Translations under genes and position numbers: made by a program
Shown: piece after piece, positions 20,919 through 60,102 of the stretch
Numbering within the stretch: position 1 is the stretch's first letter
How the letters are laid out: each line of letters starts with the position of its first letter
The notes under the pieces: generated by a model
The model's database searches: none
What the model was told of the DNA's origin: nothing
What the model saw: only the letters and a program-made list of their open reading frames with translations
Assembly: GCA_040752075.1 (NCBI GenBank)
Contig: JBFMFQ010000001.1
Coordinates: 342-64,341 of the forward strand
Source of the DNA: Candidatus Zixiibacteriota bacterium
GTDB lineage: Bacteria > Zixibacteria > MSB-5A5 > WJJR01
DNA: 64,000 nucleotides
Direction of reading: 5' to 3'

Positions 20919-23900
20919 ATGGACCGCCATCTCGCTTCGGCCAGTCATATCATCAAGGCGGGCGCGCGTCTTGCCACGATTGCCGCTATCCTGCTCCTTT
21001 TGTCTTCCCGCTTGGTCGGTGCACAAGAGACAGCCGAACCGCTGATTCTCGAAAGGGCCGATTCGTCGGAAGTGATTCAATCGGCTGCGGGCAGCGAATA
21101 CCACCTGTTCGGAAACGTCCTGTTCACGCAAGGCGAAACGCGCCTGACCAGCGACCGCGCTGTCTGGATTCAGGAAACAGGGGAGATTGAATTCGAGGGA
21201 CAAGTCGAGATCACGCAGCCCGACCGGTTTCTGCGAGCCGATCACGTCTGGTACCGGCGCGAGACACGATCGTTCCTCGCCCTGGGGGATGTCCTGGTCG
21301 AGGACACGGCGCAAAGCTTCTCCCTCAAATCGGAGCGCGCGCGGTTCGACCGGCGTCGCGAGACGGCGCGTGCCGATTCACTGCCGGCGATGCGCTGGGA
21401 TTTCTACCTCGACTCGGCCAGCCAAACCATCATCACCGCCGACACCCTGCTCTTCAACCGCTCGCTGCGCCAGGGGATTGGAATCGGCACGGTCCGAATC
21501 TACAAAGGCGACTGGTATGCGGAAGGAGAGTACGGCGAAAGCTGGCCCGATTCCGGACGCGCGTTCCTGACCGGGACACCCAGGGCCACGGGACTGGGCG
21601 GAGATATCGCCGGAGACACGCTTGTTCTGACATTCCGCGAGAACAAAGTGGAGCGGGTGCAGGCCATCGGGCGCGCCAATGGCGTTTACCGGGACTCCAC
21701 CGGGGAAACAGCAGGAACAAACAGGATTCGCGGGCAATCCGCCGACTTCTTCCTCCGCAATGACACCCTTCGTGCCATCCGTGTCGTCGGCGAAGCATAC
21801 ACCAACAACGAACCCAGCGATACCGTGTCCGGGCATAACCAGGCCTCCGGCGACTCTCTGTGGATGCGTTTCGAGGATGGACGTCTCCGGACCGTCACAA
21901 TCTCGGGCGGCGCACGCGGGACCTACCGGGCGGCGAGCGAGACCGGCGCGGGCCGCGAGGACACTGTTCAGTACAAAGGCGCTGAGATCGTCTTTACGCC
22001 GGACTCGAACCGGATCGACATCGTCAACGAATCGCAGCTTCAGTACGGCCGCGTTGTGCTCGATGCCGGCCGCATTTCGTACTGGACCGACTCGCGCAAT
22101 CTCGTGGCCCGCCCGGTGGAAGCGCCGACCGATTCCGCAAAGGAACTCCAGCGGCCTCATCTGGCCGACGGCGAGCAAATCGTCATTGGCGATACCCTGA
22201 CTTACAACATCGATTCCCGCCGCGGGCGTATCCGCGGCTCCCGCACGGAATTCGAGGGCGGATTCTACCGCGGGGATGATTTCAAGAAGTACACGGAGGA
22301 TGTCTTCTTCGTGGCCGACGGGATCTACACCACCTGCGACCTCGAGGAGCCGCACTTCCGTTTCGAAAGCGACGACATGGAGATCCTGCGTGACGACAAG
22401 GTCATCGCGCGTCCCGTCGTCCTGAAGATCGGCGAGCTGCCCGTGGCAATCCTGCCGTTCTACGTGTTCCCGATCAAGCGGGGGAGGCACTCGGGCTTTC
22501 TGCCGATCCGTTTCGGGAACTTTGACCGGGGAAACCGGTTCATCTCCAACGTCGGGTACTACTGGGCGGCATCCGACTATTGGGATGTCGAAGGGGCGCT
22601 CGACTTCAATGAAGAGTCCGGCCTGAATCTTCGATCAACGTTTAACTACGCGAAGCGATACCTCTACACGGGATCACTCTCCGGGTCGTACGCACGCGAG
22701 TCCCGGTTTACCAGCGCGGGACGGTCGCGCTCCACGGTCTGGACCCTGACCGGGAATCACAACCAGACGCTTTCGCCGACCGCAACGCTGGCGGGTTACA
22801 TGAACTTCATCTCCGACAAGAGCTACTACGACAACTACACCTACGACCCCAACGACCGCCGGCTACGGACAATCAGTTCGCGGTTGAATCTCAACAAGCG
22901 GTTTGCATGGGGGGCATCGTTGACCGCCGCCCTCGACGCGACCGAGAATCTCGACACCGAAACACGAACGCAGACTCTTCCGCAAGTGTCTCTGACCCTG
23001 CCAAGCCAGCGTCTGCTCAAGCCGGACTCCGGGCAGACCGCACGCTGGTATCACCAGGGGTACGTCTCCATGGGGTCGAGCTTTCGTCATTACTACAACC
23101 GGGTGCCCAAGTCCGGCGACACCACCGGCGCATTCGACGAGCGTCGGTACATGACCATGGACCACCGCGCGGGGATCAGTTTCCCGCAGACGGTGCTCAA
23201 GCACATCACGGTCTCGCCGGCGGCATCCCTGCAGGAGACCTGGTACTACGTCTTCCGTACACCGCTGGCCGTGGCCAATGGGGTGCCTGTCGAAGACCCC
23301 GCCCGCCGTCTGTCCGGGTCGCTCGGGGTCGGGTCCAACACCAATCTCTATGGGTTCTTAAACCCCCGGCTCTTCGGGCTCACGACCATCCGCCACACGC
23401 TCACACCAAGTGTCAGTTATTCCTTCACGCCGGCCATTTCGCAAAACAACGAAATCCGTTCCTTCACCGGCGCCGGCGGCGGGTCATCGCGACGCGCCCA
23501 GTCACTGTCCTTCGGGCTGGGGAACGTGTTCGATGCAAAGCTGGGAGAGGGGGAGACCGAACGAAGAGTCTCCCTCTTTAATGCGAGCCTTGGCGCCAGC
23601 TACGACCTCGAGAAATCGGAAGGCGGGTGGTCCCTTCTAAGCGGATCGGCGCGCACCAACTTGGCCCAGCGACTTGAGTTGTCCACCAACGCCACCTGGG
23701 ATCTTTACAACCAGACCACGGGCGACCTCCAATGGACCAATCCCCGGCTGTTGAACTTCGGCATCAGCGCCGGGATGAATCTCAAGGGCGAGGCCTCGGC
23801 GCTGACATCCGTGACCGAGCTGCGCGAGCATGCCAATGACACCCTCTTCTCGTCAGATCAGATTCCCTTCAACATCGGTTTGTCCTATCGGTACGACGAG

Positions 23901-24191
23901 TCCCGTGGGACATTCAGCGCCTACAAAACACACTGGATCAGCACACGCATCGACTTCGAGCCCACCAAGAACTGGACGGCCTCCATTCAGAATCGGTACG
24001 ATCTGGCAAATCACAAGATCACGGATCAGACCTTTGAGGTGACCCGCGACCTGCATTGCTGGTCGGCGCAATTTGTATGGCGGCCAGGCGGATCCGGGCA
24101 GGGGTATTACTTCCGCATCGGCGTGAAGGACATCCCCGACATCAAGATCGAACGCTCGGAGAGCGGACTGCGCGGGGCGATCTGGCGCTGA
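20919..24191 (+). CDS. lptD: LPS-assembly protein LptD/OstA family, unusually long (1090 aa) with an extended N-terminal OstA-like repeat region
   Basis: Signal peptide. N-terminal YHLFGNVLFTQGETRLTSDRAVW OstA/LptA-like beta-jellyroll segments, repeated about three times. Long C-terminal beta-barrel with alternating hydrophobics. Confidence 0.65.
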   Translation: MDRHLASASHIIKAGARLATIAAILLLLSSRLVGAQETAEPLILERADSSEVIQSAAGSEYHLFGNVLFTQGETRLTSDRAVWIQETGEIEFEGQVEITQPDRFLRADHVWYRRETRSFLALGDVLVEDTAQSFSLKSERARFDRRRETARADSLPAMRWDFYLDSASQTIITADTLLFNRSLRQGIGIGTVRIYKGDWYAEGEYGESWPDSGRAFLTGTPRATGLGGDIAGDTLVLTFRENKVERVQAIGRANGVYRDSTGETAGTNRIRGQSADFFLRNDTLRAIRVVGEAYTNNEPSDTVSGHNQASGDSLWMRFEDGRLRTVTISGGARGTYRAASETGAGREDTVQYKGAEIVFTPDSNRIDIVNESQLQYGRVVLDAGRISYWTDSRNLVARPVEAPTDSAKELQRPHLADGEQIVIGDTLTYNIDSRRGRIRGSRTEFEGGFYRGDDFKKYTEDVFFVADGIYTTCDLEEPHFRFESDDMEILRDDKVIARPVVLKIGELPVAILPFYVFPIKRGRHSGFLPIRFGNFDRGNRFISNVGYYWAASDYWDVEGALDFNEESGLNLRSTFNYAKRYLYTGSLSGSYARESRFTSAGRSRSTVWTLTGNHNQTLSPTATLAGYMNFISDKSYYDNYTYDPNDRRLRTISSRLNLNKRFAWGASLTAALDATENLDTETRTQTLPQVSLTLPSQRLLKPDSGQTARWYHQGYVSMGSSFRHYYNRVPKSGDTTGAFDERRYMTMDHRAGISFPQTVLKHITVSPAASLQETWYYVFRTPLAVANGVPVEDPARRLSGSLGVGSNTNLYGFLNPRLFGLTTIRHTLTPSVSYSFTPAISQNNEIRSFTGAGGGSSRRAQSLSFGLGNVFDAKLGEGETERRVSLFNASLGASYDLEKSEGGWSLLSGSARTNLAQRLELSTNATWDLYNQTTGDLQWTNPRLLNFGISAGMNLKGEASALTSVTELREHANDTLFSSDQIPFNIGLSYRYDESRGTFSAYKTHWISTRIDFEPTKNWTASIQNRYDLANHKITDQTFEVTRDLHCWSAQFVWRPGGSGQGYYFRIGVKDIPDIKIERSESGLRGAIWR

Positions 24192-27537: not shown

Positions 27538-28257
27538 TTGCTGTATCATAGGAGCATGGGCACAACCGCGCGCATCCGACCGTTCCTTCTAACCGCATCG
27601 ATCGTGGGTGCCGTACTCCTGCTGGCTGGATGGACGCCTGCCGACGCCTGCTCCGCCGACTCGATCCTTGCTCTCCTTGAACAGAAGATCGAAAGCCAAG
27701 TGACCATCCGGGTGGATTACTCCAAGGAGTCCCACTCCCTGCTGTTCGGGGACCGGCCTGAGGAGAACGGGATGTTGTGGCTGGGGCCGCCCCGGAGATA
27801 CCGGGTCGAGTCCGGGGATCAGGTCATTGTCCGGGGGGCGGACACCCTATGGACCTACAGCAAGGGAACCAAGCAGGTCACCATCCGGACCGGAGGATTG
27901 GACTCGCTCGAATTCGGCCCGGCGGGCTTTTTCGGATCTCTCCGAACCGACTTTGTCCCCGTGACCTGTACTGTTGATGAGATCGAGGACAAGCCGTTCT
28001 GGCGGGTCCGCCTGGTTGCCAAGACCGAGACCGCCGCCATCCAACGGCTCACCCTCTGGGTCGATCAATCCTCCCATTGGCCGGGCGCGGCGGAATATGT
28101 GGACTACAACGAGGAAACTTCCCGTCTGCGCTTCGGCGCCTATAAGACCGATCAAGCCAAAGACAGACAACAGTTTACGTTTTCTCCGCCGTCCGGAACA
28201 GAAGTCATCGTTTTTCCTGCGAAAAAAAACGAGCGCGAACCCGACTCCGGGCGTTAA
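27538..28257 (+). CDS. LolA-like outer-membrane lipoprotein carrier / sorting protein
   Basis: Signal peptide. About 230-aa periplasmic beta-sheet protein with a LolA-like pattern (RFSQ/LWVD-type segments). Contains an A8 run at 28222-28229. Confidence 0.45.
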   Translation: MLYHRSMGTTARIRPFLLTASIVGAVLLLAGWTPADACSADSILALLEQKIESQVTIRVDYSKESHSLLFGDRPEENGMLWLGPPRRYRVESGDQVIVRGADTLWTYSKGTKQVTIRTGGLDSLEFGPAGFFGSLRTDFVPVTCTVDEIEDKPFWRVRLVAKTETAAIQRLTLWVDQSSHWPGAAEYVDYNEETSRLRFGAYKTDQAKDRQQFTFSPPSGTEVIVFPAKKNEREPDSGR

Positions 28258-31194: not shown

Positions 31195-32013
31195 GTGACC
31201 GGGCCTTCGACTCTCAAACGATTCTCATGCGCTTTACTGCTTCCGTTGCTCGGGATGGCGGTGTTCGCGTGCGCGGGCAAGACACCCCCGGTGGTGCTGA
31301 GCGCCCAGGATGGGTACACCGAAGCTCACGCGCTCTACGAAGCGGGCAAGTGGGAAAAGGCGCGCCTGGCTTTCGAACAGGTGGTCTTCAACCATCCGGG
31401 CAGTGCTCTGGTCGATTCGGCCCAGTACTTCCTCGGCATGTGCTACTTCAAGATGGAGGACCCGATCCTCGCAGCGGCCGAGTTCCAGCGGGTGCGCACC
31501 CAGTATCCGGCCAGCCCGCTGGTGGATGACGCCGACATCATGCGCTGCCGTTCGCTGCTTCTGTCCTCGCCATCGCACACCGGGCTTGATCAGGAGCCGA
31601 CGCGCGAAGCCGTCAACGAGCTCAGGTTGTTCCAGGACAATCACCCGTTCTCGGAGTTTCTGCCGGCGGCGGATTCGCTCCTGAAGGTTGCGTACGGACG
31701 GCTGTCCACGAAGGATTTCAAGACGGGAGTGCTTTACCAAAAGCTGGGCCGTTACGAGGCCGCACGCGTCTACCTTCAGGAGATGATCGACCGCTATCCG
31801 GAATCGCCTCTGGTGCCGGACGCGCTCTACCGCCTCGGCGAGGGACAGCGCCGCCAGGACTCGCTGGCAAGCGCGATTGAGTATTACGAGAAACTGATTT
31901 ACACATTCCCCGACCACGAGCGCACGGGAGACGCCCGCAAGCGCGTGGCCCGGCTGGCGCGCCAGCGCGCGGTGGAAGCGGCCGACAGCAGCGCCGACAC
32001 ATCGGGAGAATGA
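31195..32013 (+). CDS. bamD: Outer membrane protein assembly factor BamD-like lipoprotein (TPR)
   Basis: Signal plus Cys (MAVFACAG). TPR-like helical repeats. YxxGxxYF-type pattern (AQYFLGMCYFKMEDP). GTG start. Confidence 0.55.
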   Translation: MTGPSTLKRFSCALLLPLLGMAVFACAGKTPPVVLSAQDGYTEAHALYEAGKWEKARLAFEQVVFNHPGSALVDSAQYFLGMCYFKMEDPILAAAEFQRVRTQYPASPLVDDADIMRCRSLLLSSPSHTGLDQEPTREAVNELRLFQDNHPFSEFLPAADSLLKVAYGRLSTKDFKTGVLYQKLGRYEAARVYLQEMIDRYPESPLVPDALYRLGEGQRRQDSLASAIEYYEKLIYTFPDHERTGDARKRVARLARQRAVEAADSSADTSGE

Positions 32014-34217: not shown

Positions 34218-34289
34218 GATGACCCTCCGAGCGTCCAGCGGAACCGCAACGATCACGCACCCGCACTGCATAACGCACAAAAGGCAAAA

Positions 34290-34320
34290 CCCCGGCCACA
34301 ACAGCCGGGGTCACCGTTTT
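34290..34320. terminator. Hairpin terminator between convergent genes (CCCCGGC-N7-GCCGGGG, then TCACCGTTTT)
   Basis: 7-bp GC stem at 34290-34310, followed by a T-tract on the + strand. A-rich (aaaaggcaaaa) on the other side gives a U-tract on the - strand. Confidence 0.5.
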
Positions 34321-34340: not shown

Positions 34341-35678
34341 TCAGACTCGGTAGGCGAACGTCACAAAGACACGCCGGGTTTTGTAATTCGCGAAGTATGT
34401 CCCCGGGTCCATGTCTCGCAGCTCATACCCGCCATGGACATAGGACATGTCGATCGTCATCACACGGTCGATGAGAAATCCCGCACCGAAGGTGAGGTAC
34501 TGCCGCTGGGACTCGACATACCGGTCATCGATGGGGAGCGGATCGAGAAAGTAGCCGGCGCGGACCGTCACACCTTCGTTGGGGAAAATGTACTCGGCGC
34601 CAAGGTTAACGCCGATTACTTCTCTGAGATTGTCCTTCACAAAGCGAAGTTCAGGCGAATTGTTCAGCAGATCGTCGTCATAATCGAAGTCCAACTGGGA
34701 CCAGTCGGAATACTTGAGGTCGAGCGCGGCTAGGAGATTTCCAGTGGCCCCCGAGGCCCCGATTCCGAAGGCAAAGGGGCGCGTCAGGTTGTAGAAGGAA
34801 ACCGTCTCATACGGCAACGATGGGTCGCCATCATACGGCCAGATGTACGGCGAGAAAAGCGTATCTACCGTATGGTCGTAGATGGAAAACTCTTCAGCGT
34901 CGAGATAAGTGGGTGTTTCAATTGTGACGCCGACCGAAAACGCCTGCGAGACCGTGTAGGTTAGCCCCGCCAATGCTGACACTCCGACATAGTCGATGTC
35001 AGTGTTGATGGATTCGCGTTCACTGATTGAATCGCCGAGATTCCCTTGTGCCACTCTTGCTTGCCAGTCGAAGTGGTCACTTCCAGTCAAGATGTTTAGC
35101 GTCAGCCCGGCGGCCAAGCGTGGGGAAATGTCCATCCCCGCACCGGCAGACCACTTCCACATTCCCCCGTGCTCGATCTCACTGCCGGTGTAGACGGAGT
35201 CGATTCCCGGGTAGGTTCGTTCTGAGTATGCACGGTCGAAACTGTTGAAACGGTGGACGCCTGTTGCGAACACGAGTGATCCTCGATACGTTGGGACTGG
35301 GAGCGTCAGGGACAATGAATTGATTCTCGTCTTACGGATGTCGTCTTCGGCATCTCCGGTCCTGTATCTTGAGCCGAGGCTGGTCTCATTCGACTGCCTG
35401 AAGTGGGAAACGCCGCCACGAAACTCAATGCGCCGAACTCGTGCGAGATTCGCCGGGTTATAGATCAGGGCAGAACCGTCGCGGGCCGACACGATTCCCG
35501 TGTTTCCCATCGAAGTCGAGCGTGCGTCACATCCGAAAAAGTCAGACGCAATGGCCCCTTGAAAGAGCGAGACATCTTCCACGTCCTGCGCAACAACGCT
35601 GGATGGTGAAGTGGCGGAGAACAATGTAATCGCCGCGGTGAAACGGGCTGAAATCAGCTTGAATTGCGAAAGACTCAT
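34341..35678 (-). CDS. Outer-membrane hydrophobic-compound channel, FadL/TodX family
   Basis: Signal peptide. ALIYNPANLARV (NPA hatch motif of FadL family). Amphipathic beta-strands. C-terminal FAYRV. GGAG RBS 5 nt before ATG at 35678. Confidence 0.6.
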   Translation of the reverse strand: MSLSQFKLISARFTAAITLFSATSPSSVVAQDVEDVSLFQGAIASDFFGCDARSTSMGNTGIVSARDGSALIYNPANLARVRRIEFRGGVSHFRQSNETSLGSRYRTGDAEDDIRKTRINSLSLTLPVPTYRGSLVFATGVHRFNSFDRAYSERTYPGIDSVYTGSEIEHGGMWKWSAGAGMDISPRLAAGLTLNILTGSDHFDWQARVAQGNLGDSISERESINTDIDYVGVSALAGLTYTVSQAFSVGVTIETPTYLDAEEFSIYDHTVDTLFSPYIWPYDGDPSLPYETVSFYNLTRPFAFGIGASGATGNLLAALDLKYSDWSQLDFDYDDDLLNNSPELRFVKDNLREVIGVNLGAEYIFPNEGVTVRAGYFLDPLPIDDRYVESQRQYLTFGAGFLIDRVMTIDMSYVHGGYELRDMDPGTYFANYKTRRVFVTFAYRV

Positions 35679-35685
35679 GAGGCTC

Positions 35686-36288
35686 CTATGGTTTGATCGT
35701 GCCACGTCTTGGGGCCTTCTTCCCTGGTTCAGGTTTTGGTGAGTTGGCGCCGGCAGTTGAGTCTGCGGGGTTGTTCGATGGGGTAACACGGACTTTGTCA
35801 CCTTGCGGAATCCCCGCGCCGGTTCCCGGTGTGCCGCCGCCTTTGGTGGCACCGGCGCCCGGCGCGATATACGTTCCACCTGTTGAGGGCACCGCCGGTG
35901 CCCCGCCGACGTAGGGGGGAGCCAACGAACCGCGCCGTCCGGCGCGCTCCCCTGGCTCGATGGGATTGCCGTTTTCGTCCACCCGACGGACGTCGTCGTC
36001 ATACCAGTAGTGGTCCCACCACCACGGGTACGCGTAGTAGTAACCCAGGCGCGGGTACTCGAAGTAGTAATCGGGGTACTCCCCGTAGAAGAAGCCGTAA
36101 GGGTAGGAACCGTAATCGGTGTGGCATTCCAGGCACCGGTCACGGTAATACTCCTGGTGATGCGCCGAATTCGAAGCGCCCTCCTCCGACGTGATCGGGT
36201 GCTTCAGGATGGTGTAGCATCCGACCAGCAGGAAGGCGAGCAGCATCGCCAGCGGTGCGGCCCAGCGCAGATGTACGGGTCGTGCCAT
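35686..36288 (-). CDS. Lipoprotein with extreme Tyr/Trp-rich acidic segment, CxxCH motif and Gly/Pro-rich tail
   Basis: Lipobox LLVGC. HHQEYYRDRCLECH followed by YPYGFFYGEYPDYYFEYPRLGYYYAYPWWWDHYWYDDD. Disordered G/P/T-rich C-terminus. Stop is 8 nt upstream of the FadL-like start. Confidence 0.55.
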   Translation of the reverse strand: MARPVHLRWAAPLAMLLAFLLVGCYTILKHPITSEEGASNSAHHQEYYRDRCLECHTDYGSYPYGFFYGEYPDYYFEYPRLGYYYAYPWWWDHYWYDDDVRRVDENGNPIEPGERAGRRGSLAPPYVGGAPAVPSTGGTYIAPGAGATKGGGTPGTGAGIPQGDKVRVTPSNNPADSTAGANSPKPEPGKKAPRRGTIKP

Positions 36289-36478: not shown

Positions 36479-36518
36479 AAAAAACCCTCGGCACACCGGC
36501 AGGCCGGTGTGCCGAGGG
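36479..36518 (-). terminator. Rho-independent terminator (perfect 15-bp stem, 4-nt loop, U6) for the upstream beta-barrel gene
   Basis: CCCTCGGCACACCGG-cagg-CCGGTGTGCCGAGGG at 36485-36518, preceded on the + strand by A6 (36479-36484), giving U6 on the - strand transcript. Confidence 0.75.
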
Positions 36519-36558: not shown

Positions 36559-37374
36559 CTACAGCCTTTCGACATAGATAAGCCGCAGTTCGCGTCCGAA
36601 GGAGTCGGTGTCGCGACGGTTTTCCAAGAGGTCCTTCATGACCCCCTCGACATAGACCTGATTGAGAATCAGCCACCGAACCCCGAAGTTCAGGTACCCG
36701 CGTCCCTTCCCAAGCGAATGCGGCGTGCGATCATCGTTGAGCGCCATGTCGTATTCAGCGACCATCCCCAGGCTGTTGTCGAAGCGGACATCGCCGCCGA
36801 AGAAGAAGTTAACGTCCTTGTCATGCTTGTCTTCGCGCGAGTAGTTGATACCACCATGAATCGAGGAGGTGAACCCGGAGGTGCGGTACCCCTTCGACGC
36901 CACCGCGTAAAAGCCCTTGGACTTGATCTGGTAACGGTTCAGGGAATCGATCCAAAGGCCGAAACCCTGCTCTTCGTAGCCGACCGATATCCCCGGCCAG
37001 ACCATGTTCTCACCGAGAATCTGGAGTTTGGTGAGAAACTGCATCCGCGGGTTCCAGGTCGGATCGTTGGAGGAGATGACATCGGTCCCGCCATAGCTGA
37101 ACCCGATTTGCCAGCGGTTGGTCAGGCCGAATTGCAGGATGCCAAGGACGCCGCCGTCCGGAAACGCCCGCAGTTCGGTGTCGAAGGACCCCTTGCTCAG
37201 GGTCCCCGCCGTGGGCGCGTCGATCATTCGCCGCGGCGGCGGATTCAACTCGTCGGATGCCGGCACCTCCGGTCGCGGCGACCGGCGCCACTGCGCCGAG
37301 GCATCGGCGGAAACCAGCAGAACGACCAACATGGCGGGCACAAGCCCGCCCCAGCGTGTGATGGAAGATTGCAT
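36559..37374 (-). CDS. Hypothetical outer-membrane beta-barrel protein
   Basis: Signal peptide (LVPAMLVVLLVSADASAQ). Alternating hydrophobic beta-strand pattern rich in G/Y/F/N. GAGGGG RBS 6 nt before ATG 37374. No family recognised. Confidence 0.45.
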   Translation of the reverse strand: MQSSITRWGGLVPAMLVVLLVSADASAQWRRSPRPEVPASDELNPPPRRMIDAPTAGTLSKGSFDTELRAFPDGGVLGILQFGLTNRWQIGFSYGGTDVISSNDPTWNPRMQFLTKLQILGENMVWPGISVGYEEQGFGLWIDSLNRYQIKSKGFYAVASKGYRTSGFTSSIHGGINYSREDKHDKDVNFFFGGDVRFDNSLGMVAEYDMALNDDRTPHSLGKGRGYLNFGVRWLILNQVYVEGVMKDLLENRRDTDSFGRELRLIYVERL

Positions 37375-37464
37375 TTTTAACCCCTCTCGGATAAACCCTG
37401 CCGCCGGAAAGGTCCCCGGAGGGGAGTTTCTTGTCAATAGAAAAGCGGGACCGCCAAAGGGGGA

Positions 37465-39667: not shown

Positions 39668-39874
39668 GGCGGGTGAGAAACATCGGAATTTCCCCCCGAT
39701 CAAGGTGTATTGAGGACAGGAGGGCCGACAGCCGCGATTCCGGTCCGAAGTTGTCAGGGATCGGCTCCGGCGCCGATCCGACACTGAAATCTATCTAAAT
39801 GTATTGCAACGACTTATGAAATTGGCGCAATTTGACTCTAAACCCGCATCCGGGTTACCCGTATCAAATAGCAC

Positions 39875-39900
39875 GGAACGTCACGCCCACTCGATTGTAT
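39875..39900 (+). promoter_or_regulatory. Candidate ECF-type promoter (GGAAC -35 element) in AT-rich divergent region upstream of ECF sigma gene
   Basis: GGAAC at 39875-39879, followed 16 nt later by TGTATT. Region 39785-39947 is conspicuously AT-rich relative to the window. Confidence 0.25.
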
Positions 39901-41293: not shown

Positions 41294-42688
41294 TTGGTGG
41301 GTGAAAGGTTGTTAGACAACAGGAAAACCGCGGGGAGCCCGCTGCGGCCGTGGAGGATCACGGCGGCGGCGGTCATTGCCGGTGCGATCTGGCTGGCCGG
41401 TCACGGCACCATGGCGCGTGCCGACTCCACCGACACATCACCCTTCAGCATCCTGCGCGCACTCGAATCGGAAATGCGATCGATTGTGGAGTCCGTCGCA
41501 CCATCCGTGGTGACCATTCGAGCCACTCACTCCGCCTCCGGTGAGTTTCCGGTCGGTATCGACCGGTCCATGTCGGTCGGCTCGGGAGTCTTCCTGGACT
41601 CGACCGGTCTCATTATGACCTCAAGCGGCGTGGTCAGCGGCGCCGATGATTTCTGGATCGAGACCTACGATGGCCGGCTGTACCAGGGGATCCTTCTTGG
41701 CGCAAGCGATGAGATCGCCCTTTTGCAGATCAAGGGTTGCCGCATTGTGCCGGCGCACTTCGGCGATGCTCTGGACCTTGGTGTTGGATCGATGGTCGCC
41801 GCGGTGGGAAACTCCTACGGTTATGCCTGTGGCGTTTCATGGGGGGAGGTCAACGGCTTCCGGCCTGACGGCACAATCCAAATGACACTCGGCATCTCCG
41901 CGGGCAGCTCCGGCGGAGCGGTGGTCAACACCGCCGGCCGGATCGTCGGGTTGGTCAGGGCTAAGATATCCGAACCATTCTATCTCGATCCGGTGTACTG
42001 CCAGACGGGGAAAGACAAGACACCCATCAGCCTCCCCGGGCGCCGCCTCGAACTGCCGACCTCGGCGGTGTCTCTGGCGATTCCCATTCAATCGGCATTG
42101 CGCAGCGCCCACCGGATACTCGAGGCGGGGACCGAGCCACGCGCCTACCTCGGCGTCTATGTCGACGACCTTCGCGGGTGGTATGCCGCGCATTTCAAAA
42201 CCTCAGAAGGGGTTTTGGTTACGGGCGTGGTTGGTCAGACCCCCGCCGAGGCCGCTGGACTTCGCCAGGGTGATCTGATCACCGCGATCGATCACCAGCC
42301 GGTGGGGTCGATGTTGCGTTTTCGGCAAGTCGTGGCGCAAACATCTCCGGGACAGCGGCTCCAATTCGATGTCGTGCGAAGCGGCCAGAGTCTGAAGATC
42401 GTTGTTGAGGCGGGGCGTGCGGACGCGCCGCACCTGGCCGCGACCGATCGCAAGTCGCGTCCCTTCCCCGTGAGCCCCGCGGCGAGTGTGTATTCCGAAT
42501 CCAAGGCGACCCCGGTCTCCGCGGAGGAGGTCGTCCCGGCGAGGCGTCAGACCGTGGCGGCGAAGACCGGTCAACACCAGCCCGGCGGTGCGTCGGAAGA
42601 CTGGGTTGCCAGACTCAACGCCATGCAGTGCATCATCGATTCACTGCGCCAGGAACTGCTCATTCTGCAGACCCAAGCCCCCCGCTGA
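41294..42688 (+). CDS. HtrA/DegP-like PDZ serine protease homologue (canonical His position appears substituted)
   Basis: N-terminal TM. GSGVFLD...TSSGVV, where HtrA has TNNHVV. SDEIALLQI (Asp region). GSSGGAV (GNSGGPL Ser motif). PDZ (GVLVTGVVGQTPAEAAGLRQGDLITAID). TTG start. Confidence 0.7.
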   Translation: MVGERLLDNRKTAGSPLRPWRITAAAVIAGAIWLAGHGTMARADSTDTSPFSILRALESEMRSIVESVAPSVVTIRATHSASGEFPVGIDRSMSVGSGVFLDSTGLIMTSSGVVSGADDFWIETYDGRLYQGILLGASDEIALLQIKGCRIVPAHFGDALDLGVGSMVAAVGNSYGYACGVSWGEVNGFRPDGTIQMTLGISAGSSGGAVVNTAGRIVGLVRAKISEPFYLDPVYCQTGKDKTPISLPGRRLELPTSAVSLAIPIQSALRSAHRILEAGTEPRAYLGVYVDDLRGWYAAHFKTSEGVLVTGVVGQTPAEAAGLRQGDLITAIDHQPVGSMLRFRQVVAQTSPGQRLQFDVVRSGQSLKIVVEAGRADAPHLAATDRKSRPFPVSPAASVYSESKATPVSAEEVVPARRQTVAAKTGQHQPGGASEDWVARLNAMQCIIDSLRQELLILQTQAPR

Positions 42689-42797: not shown

Positions 42798-45700
42798 GTG
42801 CGTAAGAGGTTTAAAATTCCACTCCTGACGCTGGTCCTGCTCGTTGTCGGCGCCGGCGTTATCCTGCTTCTGCTCATCAAGACCGATTGGCTGCCGCGTC
42901 GGGCCTCCGGCCTGATCAACGAGGCATTGGAGCACACCGCCGATCTGCACATTGAGATCGGCGACTTCGGCGGCAATCTCCTCTCCGGCATGGCCGCTGA
43001 GAATGTGGTCGTCACGCGCGCCGATGCCCCCGCCGACACGGTGGTTGTCATCGCACGGGTGTCGGCGGAGTATGACATACGCGATCTCTGGAATCGCCGC
43101 TGGGTCATCCGGTCGGCGGTCGTCGATTCACCAAAGGTGTACCTTCCGCAAGATTCGCTCCGCCAGTTCTTCGCCTCATTCGCGAGGAAGGACACGGCCG
43201 CATCCCGGCAGACCAGGCCGCTGGTGCTTTTCGACTTCGACCTCCACGACTTCGTCATCCAGGGTGGTCAGGCGTACCGGCGCAGCACATCATCGATCAT
43301 GGTCGATTCGTTCAACTTGCAACTTTCGGCGGCGAGCCATGGCAGTGTGATCGCTGCCCGACTGCGGGGCGCGGAGGCCGTCATCGATGGTTACGGACGG
43401 GTCTCGGCCAGCGGGCTTCTGCACTCCGAAAGCGGCGCCTGGAAAGTCGACTCAGTCGAAGTGTCGACATCCCGATCGCGCATCCACGCGTCCGGATCCA
43501 TGCGGGAATGGGTGCTTCGGACAGACCCGCTGGATTTGGCCGACGCCGCCTTCATCACAGGCGGGATCAAGGGAAGTGTCGAATTCGACGGTACGATCAA
43601 ACCGGACACATCGCTGACCCAATGGTCGATTCAGGGCCGCACCTCGGGTGTCCTCGAAGGTTACACGCTCGAGAGCGTCGCAATTCAAGTTGAGGTGCGC
43701 GGCCGGCAGATCGCCATCGACTCCGTTGCCGGCCGTGTGTCCGGCGCCCTTTGGAATGGTTCGGGTGCGTTCAATCTGGGAGTGAAACCGGAACGGTACA
43801 GCTACGGGGGTTCAGTCCGCGGCTTCGATCTCAACCGGTGGGCGGACGGTACTTTCTCCACGGACCTCAACGGCGCGATTGCGGTCGAGGGCGAAGGTCT
43901 CACCGATGAAACTCTGTCGTTGGATCTTGATGTTCAGTTGGCGCCAAGCCGCTTTGATAACGTTCGAATCGACTCGGCATTTGGACGTCTCACCGTGACC
44001 ACACGCGATGCGATATTCGACGACGACTTCCAGATGTATACCAACGCAACAGAGCTGACCGGCGGCGGGAGCATCTCGTATGCGGACTCCATCGACATGT
44101 TCGCCAACGTGTACTTTGAAGACCTCCGACGCTGGGACTCCCTCGTCTTTGTTGACTCGCTGGCGGGCCGGGCGTACGCGTACATTTACCTGTCCGGCTT
44201 GACCGAGGATCCGGATCTCGCCGGACGTCTTCTGTCCGATTCGCTTCGGTTGTTCGACATGCGCAGTTCATCGGTCGAGGGATGGTTTTATGCTCCGAAC
44301 TTTCTCTCGCGCCCTTCCGGGGATGTGAACTTCCGATTTGGCGCCAGCGATGCGTGGGGATGGGCGGTGGATTCGGTCGTCTTGCGCGCGAGCCTCCTGG
44401 ATCGCCGTGTGGGGATAGACTCGATGGCGGTGTTCACACCCGCCCTGACCGCCCAGGGACGCGGCTGGTTGGACTGGTCCCATGGCACCATTCCTGTCCG
44501 ACTTCTGCCGCTCACGGCCGTGTGGGAAGACCAAATCTTCCGGGCCACCGACACGATCGCTGTTAGCGTCGATTCCCTCGGGTTCGAGTTTTCTGAGGTG
44601 GCGGTGGAAAGCGGACTGGGGGAAGTTGCGGCCAGTGGGCGTGTCAACTACGATGAGTCCACTGATCTCGATTTCTCCATTGAGGGAGTCCGCATATCCA
44701 GCATCGCCCGTCGGCTGTTCCCCAATCTCAGGGCCGATGGCCTGATTGCGGCCTCGGGCCACCTTGAAGGGACGCTGGACAATCCGATCCTCACCCTTGA
44801 CGGGACAATTCGCGAACTTGAGTACGATGGCATTCCCGCCGGCGATCTTTCCGGCGCGGTCGCCTATCGCGACAATCGCCTGCGAACAGATGAGTTGCAG
44901 CTCATGCACCCGAACTACCGTGCGGTGCTCGCGGGCGAATTCCCTGTTTCACTCGACTTAAGCGGCGGAGGGGCACATGTTCTCGAAGAGCCGATGTCGG
45001 GGCGTCTCAGTGTCTCCGGAGAGGCGCTTGAGCTGGCGGCGCAACTGCTGCCCGAGACCGTGGAGTCCGTGAGCGGCCCATTCTCGATTTATGCCACGCT
45101 CGGCGGCACGCCCCGCTCCCCTCTGGTCACCGGAGACGCGCATCTCCGGAACGGTACGATCAAGGCGATCGAGATCGCCAATCCCATCGAGAATTTGCAG
45201 GTCGATGTCCTGCTCAGCCAGGATACAATCAAAATCGAGCGGGCGGAGGGCATCATCAAGCAGGGCCGGCAGACCGGAAAAGTCTCCGTGACCGGCGACA
45301 TGAAGATTCTCTCGTACAACCTCTTCGACTACGACCTGAAAGTCACCGGCCGCGATGTGCCCGCCCGCTTCGAGTTCGAGGATTTCTACGTCGAAACCGA
45401 CTTCGACCTGAATGTCAACGGCAGTGATCCACCGCTGGTGAGCGGGACCATTCAGCCCACCCGCGTCGAAGACCGCATGCCATTCGAGGATGAGGACACC
45501 CCGGAGGTGATCGATCCCGACGGGTGGGACTGGGACTTCACCGTGGAAATGCCGGGAAACTACTGGATTCACAACGAGCAGATTGATGCGGAGTTGTCTG
45601 CAGACCTGAGGATTTTGCGCGAGGAGGGACGGCCGACTTACCTGGGGCAGGCGGAGATCATTCGCGGCAAGGTATACCTCTTCGACAAGATCGGTCGCAT

Positions 45701-46274
45701 CCAGTCGGGCATTCTGACTTTCGACAACGTGAACGGGCCCGACCCGAGCCTGGATATCGATGTCCTCTTCGTTATCCGCCAGCCCAGGCCCGACCAGGCG
45801 CGTCAGAGCGAGGGGTCGCAGTCGCTCGACGTAAACCTGCATGTCGGCGGGCGCGCCTCCGAGCCCCTCATCCAGCCCGAACCGCCCTACACGGAGCAGG
45901 ATGTGCTCCTGCTCTTGACCGCGAACACCAATTTCGGCGGCGGGGAGCCGACCTCGGCATCCGATCCCTGGGCCGACCGGCTGAAGTTTGCGGCCACGGG
46001 CTTGCTGTTCTCCGAAGTGCAGCGGGTGGCCGCCCGCAAACTCGGGCTGGAGACTCTCGAGATCAGTTCGGAGGGTGATCCGACCGATGCGGAAATCACC
46101 GTGGGCCGGTACTTCTCGCCGCATCTCTACCTGTATGGTTCCAGCCAGGTCGACGCGGGCGGGGGGCAGGAAGTGGGGTTTGAGTACCGCTTCAACCGTC
46201 ATTTGTTTCTGGAAGGCAACCGTGACAGTGAGAATCTTTACCGGCTCAACCTGCATTTCAACTGGGACTATTGA
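42798..46274 (+). CDS. tamB: Translocation and assembly module protein TamB (AsmA-like, DUF490 C-terminus)
   Basis: N-terminal TM anchor. Over 1100-aa beta-rich repeat protein. C-terminal DUF490-like end (...YRFNRHLFLEGNRDSENLYRLNLHFNWDY). Confidence 0.7.
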   Translation: MRKRFKIPLLTLVLLVVGAGVILLLLIKTDWLPRRASGLINEALEHTADLHIEIGDFGGNLLSGMAAENVVVTRADAPADTVVVIARVSAEYDIRDLWNRRWVIRSAVVDSPKVYLPQDSLRQFFASFARKDTAASRQTRPLVLFDFDLHDFVIQGGQAYRRSTSSIMVDSFNLQLSAASHGSVIAARLRGAEAVIDGYGRVSASGLLHSESGAWKVDSVEVSTSRSRIHASGSMREWVLRTDPLDLADAAFITGGIKGSVEFDGTIKPDTSLTQWSIQGRTSGVLEGYTLESVAIQVEVRGRQIAIDSVAGRVSGALWNGSGAFNLGVKPERYSYGGSVRGFDLNRWADGTFSTDLNGAIAVEGEGLTDETLSLDLDVQLAPSRFDNVRIDSAFGRLTVTTRDAIFDDDFQMYTNATELTGGGSISYADSIDMFANVYFEDLRRWDSLVFVDSLAGRAYAYIYLSGLTEDPDLAGRLLSDSLRLFDMRSSSVEGWFYAPNFLSRPSGDVNFRFGASDAWGWAVDSVVLRASLLDRRVGIDSMAVFTPALTAQGRGWLDWSHGTIPVRLLPLTAVWEDQIFRATDTIAVSVDSLGFEFSEVAVESGLGEVAASGRVNYDESTDLDFSIEGVRISSIARRLFPNLRADGLIAASGHLEGTLDNPILTLDGTIRELEYDGIPAGDLSGAVAYRDNRLRTDELQLMHPNYRAVLAGEFPVSLDLSGGGAHVLEEPMSGRLSVSGEALELAAQLLPETVESVSGPFSIYATLGGTPRSPLVTGDAHLRNGTIKAIEIANPIENLQVDVLLSQDTIKIERAEGIIKQGRQTGKVSVTGDMKILSYNLFDYDLKVTGRDVPARFEFEDFYVETDFDLNVNGSDPPLVSGTIQPTRVEDRMPFEDEDTPEVIDPDGWDWDFTVEMPGNYWIHNEQIDAELSADLRILREEGRPTYLGQAEIIRGKVYLFDKIGRIQSGILTFDNVNGPDPSLDIDVLFVIRQPRPDQARQSEGSQSLDVNLHVGGRASEPLIQPEPPYTEQDVLLLLTANTNFGGGEPTSASDPWADRLKFAATGLLFSEVQRVAARKLGLETLEISSEGDPTDAEITVGRYFSPHLYLYGSSQVDAGGGQEVGFEYRFNRHLFLEGNRDSENLYRLNLHFNWDY

Positions 46275-46279
46275 GAGTG

Positions 46280-48178
46280 ATGCGACTGCCGGCCGCACTC
46301 CTGCTAGTGGCGATCATCCTATCGCTCCCCGCCGCATCGCGGGCGCAGGATAGCACACTGACGGGCGAGGAATTGTCCCGCTGGGTGCGTCGACGGCCCA
46401 ACATCAGTCGCATTGAGGTGACCGGCAACACCGCTCACAAGTCCGGACGAATCAGAAACGTGATGCAGCTGAAGACGCCCAGCTTCTGGGCGCACTTCGG
46501 ACTTCGGGAACGTCCCCGGCTGCTGCCGCTCACCATGGAGCGCGATGCCGCGACGATCGACCGGGAGTATCGCGCGATCGGCTACTGGGATGCCGTTACC
46601 AAAGTGACCGCCAGGCCGGATAAGGATGGCGAATCGGCGGTGGTCTCGGTCGCGATCACCGAAGGTGCGCGATCTCACTGGGGCGCGATAACGATGACGG
46701 GCGACCACGGGGAACTGCTCTCGCGCACTTCGCGCTTTGCCGGGCCGTTGGGAAGGGGGAAGCCCGCCGATTCGATGGCATTCGCACTCGCCCACGCGAG
46801 AATGCTCGCCGAGTGCGCCAATCAAGCACATCCCGCCGCCCGGGTACTGCCGACAATTAGCCGTCGGCAAGATTCCATCGACGTTCATTTCGAACTGAAA
46901 AGCGGCCCGCGGGTGGTCCTGGGAGAAGTCCACATGGAGGGACTCGAACACACCCGGGAAAGTGTGGTCCGGCATGAACTGCGTCTTCAGCCAGGACAGC
47001 CCTACTCCCGCCGCCAGCTGGATGAACGCCAGCAGGACATTTACGCCACCGGTTTGTTCACCTTTGTCCGTCTGGAGCCGCGCTACGCGGACTCCGCCGC
47101 CGGCCAAAGCGAGCGTGTCGCCGATCTGAACTTGCGGCTTGTTGAACGGGCGCCGTCGTTCATCGGATTCCGCACCGGCGCCGGGCAGGATGACTATCGC
47201 GATCTGACGTTTGATTATGCGCTGGAGTGGGGAAGCCGTAACTGGATGGGAACAGCGCGCAAGTACACGCTGACGGCGACCTCGAGTTTTGTCGTGGTCA
47301 CCGAATGGCGTGTTTTGCATCACCGCTTCTCCGGCAGCTACACGGAGCCTTATATCTTCGGTCTCCGCCTTCCCACCACGCTCGAACTGGCGTACGAGCC
47401 GCCGCTGCGATCCGCCACCCAGGATTACCGTGTCGAGCGGATGTCGGGACAGTTGAGTGTAACCCGCCGGTTCCGGCGGGTCCACCGGCTCTGGTCTTCG
47501 CTGGTCTACGAGCGGGTGAATATCAGCGACGTGCCCGAGGATCGCCGGGAGGACATCCTCGAAGAAGAGGGCAACACGATCAACCGTCGGTGGAACTTCG
47601 CGCTGGAGCGCGACACACGGCCCAACCTGTTTGTTCCGACCGCCGGCGCCCTGACCCGGTTCTCCACCGAGTTTGTCGGGGGATTCCTGGGTGGACGGAG
47701 CGACTTCTACAAGCTCGACTTCTCCTGGGCGAAGTATCAGATCATCAGCGATCCCACGGTGCTGGCCAGCCGCATCCGTGTCGGCTGGGCGGGCGTCCAT
47801 TCGGGAGGCGATTTCGTCCCTTCGCTCGACCGGTTCTACCTCGGCGGTGCGAACTCGATCCGCGGGTACTCGGAGAACACCGTCGGCCCGGTGGATTCCC
47901 TCGGTGTGGCCGTGGGCGGCGAGGTCATCGCCCTGTTCAACCTGGAGTTGCGCACCCCGGTGAGCCGAAAATTCTGGTTTACGATCTTCGGCGACTTGGG
48001 CAACAACTGGGCCAGTTTTCATGACATCGAACTCGAGGAAACATTGCTGTCGATCGGAATCGGCTGGCAGTACATCGCGCCGGTCGGCCCGCTCCGCCTG
48101 GACTATGCACGGCGGGTGCTCCACAAGCGGCATCCCCCCTCCGATCGACTGCATCTTTCCATTCTCTTTTCATTCTAG
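46280..48178 (+). CDS. tamA: Omp85-family outer-membrane assembly protein (TamA-like, about 3 POTRA)
   Basis: Signal peptide. POTRA-like repeats. C-terminal surface-antigen barrel ending LSILFSF (terminal Phe). Start ATG 46280, GTG 46277 or TTG 46271, overlapping the tamB stop. Confidence 0.7.
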   Translation: MRLPAALLLVAIILSLPAASRAQDSTLTGEELSRWVRRRPNISRIEVTGNTAHKSGRIRNVMQLKTPSFWAHFGLRERPRLLPLTMERDAATIDREYRAIGYWDAVTKVTARPDKDGESAVVSVAITEGARSHWGAITMTGDHGELLSRTSRFAGPLGRGKPADSMAFALAHARMLAECANQAHPAARVLPTISRRQDSIDVHFELKSGPRVVLGEVHMEGLEHTRESVVRHELRLQPGQPYSRRQLDERQQDIYATGLFTFVRLEPRYADSAAGQSERVADLNLRLVERAPSFIGFRTGAGQDDYRDLTFDYALEWGSRNWMGTARKYTLTATSSFVVVTEWRVLHHRFSGSYTEPYIFGLRLPTTLELAYEPPLRSATQDYRVERMSGQLSVTRRFRRVHRLWSSLVYERVNISDVPEDRREDILEEEGNTINRRWNFALERDTRPNLFVPTAGALTRFSTEFVGGFLGGRSDFYKLDFSWAKYQIISDPTVLASRIRVGWAGVHSGGDFVPSLDRFYLGGANSIRGYSENTVGPVDSLGVAVGGEVIALFNLELRTPVSRKFWFTIFGDLGNNWASFHDIELEETLLSIGIGWQYIAPVGPLRLDYARRVLHKRHPPSDRLHLSILFSF

Positions 48179-55176: not shown

Positions 55177-57596
<2,420 letters not shown>

Positions 57597-57691
57597 AGTG
57601 GGCACACGGCGGCTGATTTGTCGCGCTTCCTCAATCGCCGCTGTTGCCCTATATTCCTGCGGTCAGGGTGGAAGGATGGCGGGGCTGGACG

Positions 57692-58549
57692 ATGGCGACT
57701 TCTCACCAGGTAAGTGCATTCCCCATCGGGTCTCACACCGTCGGCGCGGGCCGGCTGGTGTGGATTCTGGGCCCCTGCGTGCTCGAAAGTATGGACATGG
57801 CGCTTCAGGTGGCCGATGTCCTGGCGAAGGCCGGAGAACGTCAAGGTCATCAGATCGTGTTCAAGGGCTCGTACACCAAAGCGAATCGCCTGCGTGCCGA
57901 CTCCTACACCGGCCCGGGGATCGAAGAGGGCCTGCGAATCCTCGAATCAGTTAAGCGCCAAACCGGCCTGCCCGTGACAACCGATGTGCACACCACCGCG
58001 GAAGCGGAGATGGCCGGCGCCGTCGCCGACTTGATCCAGATCCCGGCGTTTCTGTGCCGCCAAACGGATCTCGTTGTCGCGGCTGCCAATACGGGAAGGC
58101 CGGTGAACATCAAGAAGGGCCAGTTCCTGTCGCCGGCGGACATGGGGCACATCGCGGACAAAGTGGTCCGAACAGGCAACCGCAAAGTCTTGCTGACGGA
58201 GCGGGGCACAACCTACGGCTACGGCGATTTGATTGTCGATTTCCGTTCCCTGCCGATCATGCGATCCACCGGACACCCGGTCTGCTACGATGCCTCGCAC
58301 GCGGTCCAGACACCGGGTTCCGGAGGCGGGCACTCGGGGGGAAAGCGCGAGTTCCTGCTCCCGCTTTTGAGAGGCGCCCTGGCCGTGGGGGTGGATGCCA
58401 TCTTCTGCGAGATCCACCCCGATCCATCCTCGGCAAAAAGCGACGCCCAGACACAGTGGCCGCTGGCAGACGCACAGGCTCTCTTTGATTCCGCCGAGCG
58501 CGTGCTTGGCCGTACCGAAGTAAATGGAGAGGCCGCGCATGCCGGCTAA
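57692..58549 (+). CDS. kdsA: 2-dehydro-3-deoxyphosphooctonate aldolase (KDO8P synthase)
   Basis: GPCVLES, FKGSYTKANR, IPAFLCRQTDL motifs. Confidence 0.85.
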   Translation: MATSHQVSAFPIGSHTVGAGRLVWILGPCVLESMDMALQVADVLAKAGERQGHQIVFKGSYTKANRLRADSYTGPGIEEGLRILESVKRQTGLPVTTDVHTTAEAEMAGAVADLIQIPAFLCRQTDLVVAAANTGRPVNIKKGQFLSPADMGHIADKVVRTGNRKVLLTERGTTYGYGDLIVDFRSLPIMRSTGHPVCYDASHAVQTPGSGGGHSGGKREFLLPLLRGALAVGVDAIFCEIHPDPSSAKSDAQTQWPLADAQALFDSAERVLGRTEVNGEAAHAG

Positions 58550-59081
58550 ACGCCGCCCCACCAAGGCGCGTTTGGCGCGGGTACGGATGATCATCTTCGA
58601 CTTCGATGGTGTGCTGACGGACAACTACGTGTTCGTGGGTGAGAACGGTGAACGATTCAAGAGATTCTGGGTGCCCGACGGTGTTGGGATTTTCCTGGCC
58701 CACAAGGCGGGGATCAAGTTCGCGATCATCACGGGCAATCAGGACAAATCAACGCGTGTCCGGGCCGAGTACCTGCGCATTGACGATGTGTTCCAGGGCA
58801 TTCTGGACAAGGCGGAGGCGTACGACGAAGTCAAACGGCGGCACCGGTTGAGCGACGAGGAATGCCTCTATATCGGCGATGATCTCCCCGACCGTCCGGT
58901 GTTTGAGCGCGTGGGGATCGCGGTTGCGCCGTCGGACGCCAACCCGCTGATGAAACGGCTGGCCGATTGGATCGGCAGTTACCCAGGCGGACGGGGTATC
59001 GTGCGTGAGACCATCGACGCGGTCCTGGAAGCCCGCACCAATGGAACCGGAAAGCCGAAGAGTGGGAAGAGACCCAAATGA
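58539..59081 (+). CDS. kdsC: KDO 8-phosphate phosphatase (HAD family)
   Basis: IIFDFDGVLTD and YIGDDLPD motifs. Alternative start at 58524. Confidence 0.8.
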   Translation: MPAKRRPTKARLARVRMIIFDFDGVLTDNYVFVGENGERFKRFWVPDGVGIFLAHKAGIKFAIITGNQDKSTRVRAEYLRIDDVFQGILDKAEAYDEVKRRHRLSDEECLYIGDDLPDRPVFERVGIAVAPSDANPLMKRLADWIGSYPGGRGIVRETIDAVLEARTNGTGKPKSGKRPK

Positions 59082-60094: not shown

Positions 60095-60102
60095 GACAAA
60101 AG

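Follow-up and report, generated by a model that had tools for sequence, protein, structure and literature searches.

Outer-membrane β-barrels that form complexes with a dedicated lipoprotein are characteristic of the Fibrobacteres–Chlorobi–Bacteroidetes (FCB) superphylum, and what these complexes do in membrane assembly has only recently begun to emerge (BamG and BamH, 2025). In that system the conserved lipidated N-terminus of BamH is wedged into the FadL-like barrel BamG, and the paralogues BamG2 and BamH2 are encoded in an operon (PMC12578637, PMC12611786). Here we examine a three-gene module in a 64,000-nucleotide stretch of DNA from a Candidatus Zixiibacteriota bacterium (GenBank assembly GCA_040752075.1, contig JBFMFQ010000001.1, positions 342 to 64,341), which as a whole is called the window and whose coordinates are used throughout. 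The module lies on the minus strand and consists, in order, of a gene for a putative small outer-membrane barrel (gene 1, up292), a gene for an exceptionally aromatic lipoprotein with a CxxCH motif (gene 2) and a gene for a FadL-fold outer-membrane barrel (gene 3). The full trio is seen across Zixibacteria and on one more distant metagenome contig, and the lipoprotein–barrel pair occurs in other distant relatives as well, an Eisenbacteria-labelled contig included. We tentatively favor the view that the module presents a barrel-docked outer-membrane lipoprotein that would be a mono-haem cytochrome in most lineages.

The product of gene 3 was modelled with AlphaFold2 (AF2) from 82 sequences as 14 strands with an N-terminal hatch (predicted local distance difference test, pLDDT, 90.5; predicted template modelling score, pTM, 0.84), and the Asn-Pro-Ala (NPA) motif N74-P75-A76 is invariant in these 82 sequences. 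A Foldseek search against the PDB ranked BamG first, with 9hiv_F from B. thetaiotaomicron (E = 2.7e-18; template modelling (TM) score 0.63/0.68) followed by 9n2d_B and 9hjm_F, the latter two from F. johnsoniae and P. gingivalis; FadL and TodX came close behind at TM 0.6–0.68, and PorV (8gl6_F) was a poor match at TM 0.38. Scored against family hidden Markov models (HMMs), the barrel reached 69.3 bits with NCBIfam BamG (NF053685; cut-off 250), 55.2 bits with NCBIfam PorV_fam (NF033709; cut-off 90) and 27.3 bits with Pfam Toluene_X (PF03349; cut-off 29.7), while most barrel homologues bear a precomputed PF03349 match and the family profile matches TodX (1.8e-11) and FadL (~1e-7). The mature N-terminus is ~4–7 residues longer than that of FadL/TodX and contains a conserved E..AGNFFG, and the protein ends at its last strand (...AYR[FIV]), the NCBIfam BamG alignment stopping at model position 363 of 397. 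A 600-aa open reading frame (ORF) with a GTG start (34341–36143, −) was discarded as an open-frame artefact, because in this 62% GC DNA the barrel frame runs on upstream without a stop through the lipoprotein gene; the barrel itself starts at ATG 35678. An identical barrel protein in NCBI is assigned to a Candidatus Zixiibacteriota metagenome-assembled genome.

The locus resembles BamG–BamH in pairing a 14-strand FadL-fold barrel with a dedicated lipoprotein whose lipidated N-terminus would be expected to bind that barrel, in having BamG as the barrel's best match in both PDB and NCBIfam, and in the FCB-superphylum setting common to both. BamG, however, has a C-terminal extension that contacts BamD and an N-terminal extension of 10–12 residues that passes through the lateral opening, whereas our barrel lacks the former and has only a shorter form of the latter; BamH is a large folded two-domain surface protein, whereas the lipoprotein here is unrelated to it and is without an acidic surface-export signal after the Cys; and a small barrel belongs to the unit here as a third gene. 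With the FadL/TodX/TbuX transporters (PF03349) the barrel shares 14 strands, the N-terminal hatch, the NPA motif and TM scores of 0.6–0.68, but it is only 13–16% identical to them, has no catabolic context, is tied to an obligatory lipoprotein partner and has an extended N-terminus. PorV of type IX secretion is likewise a partner-binding barrel of the FadL superfamily, and its hatch motif ARA.G.G...NPA aligns with the barrel here, but no genes of a type IX secretion system lie nearby. Identity with PorV/PorQ was rejected on the PorV_fam score, under its cut-off, and on the TM score, and BamG orthology on a score of 69 against a cut-off of 250 together with the missing C-terminal extension. The barrel is a divergent member of the FadL superfamily, nearest to BamG but orthologous neither to BamG itself nor to PorV or to FadL/TodX transporters.

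LptM with LptDE, and RcsF with OmpA or BamA, offer a different precedent, in which a small lipoprotein has a conserved N-terminal segment, is mostly disordered in its remainder and depends for its function on a partner barrel. To our knowledge these proteins have no sequence relationship to ours, their barrels belong to other classes, and neither LptM nor RcsF contains an aromatic block or a CxxCH. Cyc2 and MtrCAB share with the locus the combination of an outer-membrane β-barrel with a cytochrome element, here of a single CxxCH, but they differ from it in that barrel and lipoprotein are separate polypeptides here, the barrel is a plugged FadL fold rather than a 16-strand porin, and no partner cytochromes are encoded nearby. 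Cyc2 is defined by a fused 16-strand porin and by two motifs that flank CxxCH, AxPxFAR[QK][TY] five residues before it and PxL four residues after it (PMC8406198). Membership of the lipoprotein in Cyc2 was rejected, as, by eye, the signature motifs are absent from the surroundings of its CxxCH (...HHQEYYRDR-CLECH-TDYGSYPYG...).

Conservation of the three-gene module

A scan of one genome per species recovered the lipoprotein and barrel genes together at 73 species-level loci, all of which we took as Zixibacteria by title or synteny; titles such as 'uncultured Ignavibacteria' or 'bacterium' among them were regarded as mislabels because the gene order matches. In ~70 of 78 related loci the lipoprotein gene is immediately preceded, in the same orientation, by up292, and essentially all loci with a long enough contig show up292, lipoprotein and barrel in succession on one strand. 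The seven more distant barrel homologues that we looked up (26–33% identity), one of them on the Eisenbacteria-labelled contig, each have a small gene immediately before them in the same orientation, and all six of these upstream genes for which DNA was available encode a lipobox followed by C-Y-T, an aromatic-rich middle and a basic C-terminus; the distant metagenome contig L078 retains an up292 homologue too. Judged from these sequences, the lipoprotein–barrel partnership is older than the phylum. No natural fusion of lipoprotein and barrel was found among the distant barrel homologues. Some distant pairs adjoin a gene for a large tetratricopeptide-repeat protein of 560–577 aa (L074, 2054–5267, −; L076, 1–3215, −), to which L074 adds a 267-aa protein without a family match and L076 three proteins of 213–221 aa.

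The barrel ATG lies 7 nt past the lipoprotein TAG, with a ribosome-binding site that overlaps this stop (Table 1), and in relatives the spacing is often −4 nt, an ATGA overlap that is the commonest arrangement, although gene spacings of this kind depend on the start codons chosen. On the evidence of these junctions the lipoprotein gene is translationally coupled to the barrel gene. Between up292 and the lipoprotein gene the spacing in relatives is mostly 13–42 nt, so that the intrinsic-terminator-like hairpin found between genes 1 and 2 in the window is peculiar to this lineage; an Rfam scan of the 270-nt gap returned no riboswitch or other RNA, only a chance match on the hairpin itself. A sequence-only reading of the window had described genes 2 and 3 as a tightly coupled pair of a lipoprotein and a FadL-family channel, insulated by hairpins on both sides and not a described system, and had proposed a search for co-occurrence. 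Much of this holds: the coupling is borne out by the overlap in relatives, the fold by the AF2 model and by TM scores of ~0.6–0.69 to FadL, TodX and BamG, the co-occurrence by the 73 genomes, and the novelty by sequence and profile searches of Pfam, NCBIfam and the PDB, in which the lipoprotein family had no match and no curated family was found. As for the insulation, both hairpins exist on the minus strand, but the terminator insulates the pair in this genome only and by synteny the unit is a module of three genes.

The likely true start of up292 is Met22 of its ORF, at 37374. We read the protein as a small outer-membrane barrel from its signal peptide, the conserved motif PR.LID.PTAGTLPRGSFD and a Y.E.F β-signal at its C-terminus. 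Its family gives weak Pfam matches to YjbH (29 of 38 members, best 4.8e-6), to OMP_b-brl and to DUF5777 (8 of 38), for the last of which a literature search found no papers; the up292 of the window itself had no match in Pfam or in sequence and profile searches of the PDB. Despite these weak matches, up292 is far shorter (~245 mature residues) than YjbH/GfcD-type and DUF5777 barrels, and no capsule or exopolysaccharide genes lie nearby. A homologue search returned 816 matches, of which the best 120 are all unnamed or from Zixibacteria and give no clue to function.

The lipoprotein and its candidate haem site

The lipoprotein translation of the sequence-only reading was reproduced from its ORF, and the protein belongs to a genuine family. 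Searching a set of 5.8 billion proteins gave 91 homologues, every named one of which is from Zixibacteria or an unclassified 'bacterium', and all 91 keep the CxxCH, the PWWW and the lipobox; a profile search of 1.84 billion representatives extended this to 317 clusters at E <= 1e-3, with one distant relative labelled candidate division KSB1. Invariant positions are H30, C52, C55, H56, D58, P63, Y64, G65, P72, G82, Y87, P88, W89, W90, W91, P124 and P125, with H30, C52, C55 and H56 unchanged across 92 sequences; conservation reaches at least 90% for the G-C-Y-T around the lipobox and for K..KA.RRGG at the C-terminus. The mature N-terminus, C-Y-T-[IV]-[LIM]-x-H-P, is near-invariant and is followed by the CxxCH 21–30 residues further on.

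The aromatic block contains 20 aromatic residues in 38, compared with 10 in the runner-up 38-residue stretch among all open frames of 100 aa or more in the 64-kb window, and its invariant residues in a 92-sequence alignment are P63, Y64, G65, P72, G82, Y87, P88, W89, W90 and W91. It can be written as four short repeats that each start with YP (YPYGFFYGE, YPDYYFE, YPRLGYYYA and YPWWWDHYWYDDD), with starts 9, 7 and 9 residues apart and the invariant YPWWW at the end. The disordered tail that follows is composed largely of Gly (20), Pro (16), Ala (12) and Thr (8), and it carries a basic motif twice, as ERAGRRGSLAPPY at approximately residues 113–126 and as KKAPRRGTIKP at the C-terminus; tail residues R118, R119, P124, P125, Y126, K191 and R195 are at least 90% conserved. 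This repetition suggests a tethered linear motif for some partner. Distant relatives show a similar duplicated or terminal basic motif, with GRRHLW and KKRHLW in L075 (2024–2521) and a C-terminal KRRGGMR in L080 (289–909). Modelled alone in AF2, the lipoprotein gave a pLDDT of 53.5 and no usable fold, as expected if folding needs a cofactor or a partner.

For the haem motif we pooled 289 distinct relatives with a C-Y-T lipobox and counted CxxCH against a histidine at mature position 7, the equivalent of His30. Where CxxCH is present, His7 is present in 276 and absent from 0; where CxxCH is absent, His7 is found in 5 and missing from 8 (Fisher p = 1e-12, not corrected for phylogeny, with losses in roughly 6–7 clades). 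His30 is thus never lost while CxxCH is kept, so the histidine is constrained only where CxxCH exists and the four residues behave as one site. The CxxCH is kept in the distant relatives L074, L075, L076 and L079. Both elements are lost in L072 (1234–1797), L078 (2485–3399), L080 (289–909), P0342, P0354, P0422, P0424 and P0437, among which P0342, with CIDCP plus KPP, is an apparent intermediate; these few lineages still keep the lipobox-CYT start, the aromatic core (YYA.PWWW), the basic tail and the barrel partner.

The simplest reading of the four-residue site is that it probably holds one covalently bound c-type haem with bis-His ligation, because it lies in a Sec-exported protein whose only cysteine outside the CxxC pair is the lipid anchor. 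Haem attachment requires an exported protein, as this lipoprotein is, and c-type cytochromes are made by Zixibacteria (PMC3903129). A small haem lipoprotein had been among the options of the sequence-only reading and is the one that fits best, with CxxCH near-universal and His30 kept in 276 of 276 relatives that have CxxCH and missing from 8 of the 13 that do not. The HH at residues 43–44, to which that reading had also drawn attention, shows no conservation, and it is His30 that serves as the conserved second histidine. In 31 loci (for example L055, 11568–12305, −) a gene for a CcdA/DsbD_TM 'cytochrome c biogenesis' membrane protein follows the lipoprotein start at a distance of ~3.6 kb, as part of a gene block that also includes creatininase-like, DUF2064, response-regulator and rhomboid genes.

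Table 1. Features of the three-gene module and envelope genes of the window
Feature	Position	Strand	Description and basis
Gene 1 (up292), putative secreted small outer-membrane β-barrel	36559–37437	−	292-aa ORF; synteny, signal peptide, β-signal
Intrinsic-terminator-like hairpin between up292 and lipoprotein gene	36485–36518	−	15-bp stem, 12 GC pairs, TTTTTT
Gene 2, lipoprotein	35686–36288	−	200 aa + stop; ORF translation; homologues, genome loci and clusters found
Signal peptide and lipobox, residues 1–24	36217–36288	−	LLVG-C24; G-C-Y-T context at least 90% conserved
Mature N-terminal segment C24-Y-T-I-L-K-H30-P31	36196–36219	−	Candidate barrel-docking strand; holds candidate distal haem ligand His30
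C52-L-E-C55-H56	36121–36135	−	Match to c-type haem attachment consensus; invariant in 92 aligned sequences
Aromatic block, residues 62–99	35992–36105	−	YPYGFFYGEYPDYYFEYPRLGYYYAYPWWWDHYWYDDD; 13 Tyr, 4 Trp, 3 Phe in 38 residues
Gly/Pro/Thr-rich disordered tail	35689–35991	−	101 residues; AF2 pLDDT <50
Ribosome-binding site of barrel gene, AGGAG	35683–35687	−	Overlaps lipoprotein stop; short or overlapping junctions also in relatives
Gene 3, 14-strand FadL-fold outer-membrane barrel	34341–35678	−	445 aa; AF2 model, HMM, Foldseek
Barrel signal peptide			Residues 1–31
Barrel N-terminal hatch			Residues ~39–84
Barrel NPA motif	35451–35459	−	
Terminator-like hairpin after barrel gene	34288–34312	−	11-bp stem, T-rich tail
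LptD-like	20919–24188		Window envelope stretch
LolA	27538–28254		Window envelope stretch
BamD	31195–32010		Window envelope stretch
DegP/DegS-like	41294–42685		Window envelope stretch
TamB-like	42798–46271		Window envelope stretch
TamA/BamA-like Omp85	46271–48175		Window envelope stretch
LptC	60103–60678		Second envelope-gene stretch, 55177–60678

Weighing the possible roles

In the account that we tentatively place first, lipidation and Lol transport would deliver the lipoprotein to the outer membrane, where one c-type haem would be attached to Cys52 and Cys55 with His56 and His30 as its axial ligands, and the aromatic block would pack round this haem at the membrane interface. The conserved lipidated N-terminus would dock on the barrel, as that of BamH does on the FadL-like BamG, and the basic-tipped tail would be left in the periplasm. 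The barrel partnership would be the ancient core of the system, with His30 and CxxCH lost together in a few lineages and the rest kept. A physical complex of barrel and lipoprotein is likely, given the gene order and the coupling; a BamH-like docking mode, which is drawn from the BamH–BamG precedent, is possible if rather doubtful. A mirror-tree comparison of lipoprotein distances gave partial r values of 0.42 with the barrel, 0.39 with up292, 0.04 with a creatininase-like neighbor and −0.44 with the sigma gene, which is weak support for co-evolution of the lipoprotein with the barrel and up292.

Several points weigh against this account. The mirror-tree comparison yields a weak signal from data points that lack independence, and the case for barrel docking consists of synteny, coupling and analogy. 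The barrel itself scores 69 against a BamG cut-off of 250, has no C-terminal extension and has an N-terminal extension of ~4–7 rather than 10–12 residues. On the side of the haem, a CxxC with two histidines could bind Zn or another metal, or the CxxC could form a disulfide, and the lipoprotein matches no cytochrome family model in Pfam, NCBIfam or the PDB. The CcdA adjacency is limited to one clade, with no such gene found near the trio in the window, and no cytochrome-maturation gene was identified in the 64-kb window, in which not every ORF was scanned for one. Thirteen relatives do without CxxCH, so haem cannot be the core function; since the lipobox, the aromatic core and the basic tail outlast the haem motif, the conserved core is more plausibly the barrel partnership than the haem.

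These last observations bear directly on a different role for the module in outer-membrane biogenesis or homeostasis, in which the barrel would be a BamG-like, LptD/LptM-like or RcsF/outer-membrane-protein-like platform that holds the lipoprotein, the basic-tipped tail would report on or stabilize the envelope, and CxxCH and His30 would form only a structural haem or metal clip. We regard this as a substantial but unlikely alternative. The survival of the core after CxxCH loss fits it, as do the barrel's best profile and fold matches, which are to BamG, and the retention of the module phylum-wide at one locus. The gene context of the trio likewise points towards envelope biology: it adjoins an extracytoplasmic function (ECF) sigma gene (48 loci), a zf-HC2 anti-sigma gene, a DegP-like protease gene (20 loci) and TamB/TamA genes (TamB in 25 loci, a count limited by the 8-kb flank), with the sigma/DegP/TamB block placed either upstream in divergent orientation or immediately behind the trio in the same orientation. 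In the distant L074 the pair again stands beside an ECF sigma and a zf-HC2 anti-sigma gene. In the window, the trio and the ECF sigma gene lie within a 27-kb stretch (20919–48175) dense in envelope-biogenesis genes, which include LptD-like, LolA, BamD, TamB and TamA genes (Table 1) and a lytic transglycosylase gene. Set against this, the barrel falls far under the BamG HMM cut-off and lacks the BamG C-terminal extension, BamD is adjacent only in 6 close relatives, and the ECF promoter precedes the sigma gene 37 times, up292 twice and the lipoprotein gene never. A conserved neighborhood in one phylum may moreover be mere inherited gene order, and an exact haem consensus in 276 of 289 relatives is left unexplained by this role.

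CxxCH and His30 are left without a role, as are the basic tail and the second barrel, if gene 3 encodes a channel of FadL/TodX type that takes up hydrophobic or aromatic compounds, with the aromatic lipoprotein as its capturing cap or plug, as the sequence-only reading had supposed. Such a channel is suggested by the FadL fold, the N-terminal hatch and the invariant NPA motif, by the profile matches to TodX (1.8e-11) and FadL (~1e-7) and by the precomputed Toluene_X match in most homologues; aromatic-rich surfaces can also bind hydrophobic or planar ligands. Among the conserved neighbors of 78 loci, however, there are no fatty-acid or aromatic catabolic genes (fad, tod or other), phylum-wide conservation at one syntenic locus is unlike that of accessory catabolic channels, the best barrel matches are to BamG, and the barrel N-terminus is ~7 residues longer than that of TodX, which recalls the N-terminal extension of 10–12 residues that blocks the transport path in BamG (PMC12578637). 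We therefore consider uptake improbable. The probability is smaller still that the module is a minimal outer-membrane electron conduit of split-Cyc2 or porin–cytochrome type, in which a mono-haem lipoprotein and a ladder of ~20 Tyr/Trp/Phe residues, not a haem chain, would carry charge, with the FadL-fold barrel and possibly the small barrel as holder. A probable single c-haem at the outer membrane that is genetically tied to β-barrels, and the exceptional Tyr/Trp density, agree with this, and Zixibacteria, which have been linked to iron cycling, encode MtrAB-like systems (PMC3903129), while Cyc2 demonstrates that one haem and one barrel can oxidize iron (PMC8406198). By eye, however, the Cyc2 signature motifs and fused 16-strand porin are absent; the modelled FadL-fold barrel would already be plugged by its own hatch; the conserved neighborhood contains no periplasmic cytochrome or respiratory genes; and several lineages have dropped the haem motif and kept the module. 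Our ranking of roles accordingly runs from a redox or sensing cytochrome, through an accessory of envelope biogenesis or homeostasis and FadL-type uptake, to a minimal electron conduit. A role in outer-membrane redox, sensing or envelope homeostasis is the most likely for the module, and uptake of fatty acids or aromatics is less likely.

Neighboring genes and significance

A phylum-wide link to BamD was considered and rejected: the gene is 2.3 kb from the trio in the window and adjacent to it in only 6 close relatives. The ORFs between 55.2 and 60.1 kb in the second envelope-gene stretch are putative kds genes by eye. At 39875–39899 (+), GGAACGTCACGCCCACTCGATTGTA is a copy of a phylum-wide autoregulatory promoter of the ECF sigma gene, GGAAC-N15-17-TGTA[TAC], which places the true sigma start downstream of the ORF start at 39804; the motif has 48 matches in ~0.96 Mb of related loci (L001–L073), 37 of them just upstream of the sigma gene. 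Regulation of the trio by this sigma factor found no support, as the motif precedes up292 only in L012 and L014 and the lipoprotein gene nowhere. In 32 loci (for example L020, 5453–5971, +) a gene of the nitroreductase family immediately precedes up292 in the same orientation, and the window has pabC-like and pabB-like genes, recognized by eye, where relatives carry the nitroreductase.

All loci recovered from Zixibacteria retain the module, as do more distant relatives; it has no family assignment and no solved relative, and it brings together a FadL-fold barrel, a probable single-haem, highly aromatic lipoprotein and a second small barrel, features that have not been described together. With a genuine haem, the lipoprotein would be an outer-membrane cytochrome of a new class that has a FadL-type barrel as its anchor; without one, the module would count as a new accessory to outer-membrane biogenesis among uncultured phyla. 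In both cases a testable hypothesis becomes available for three widespread families annotated as 'hypothetical'.

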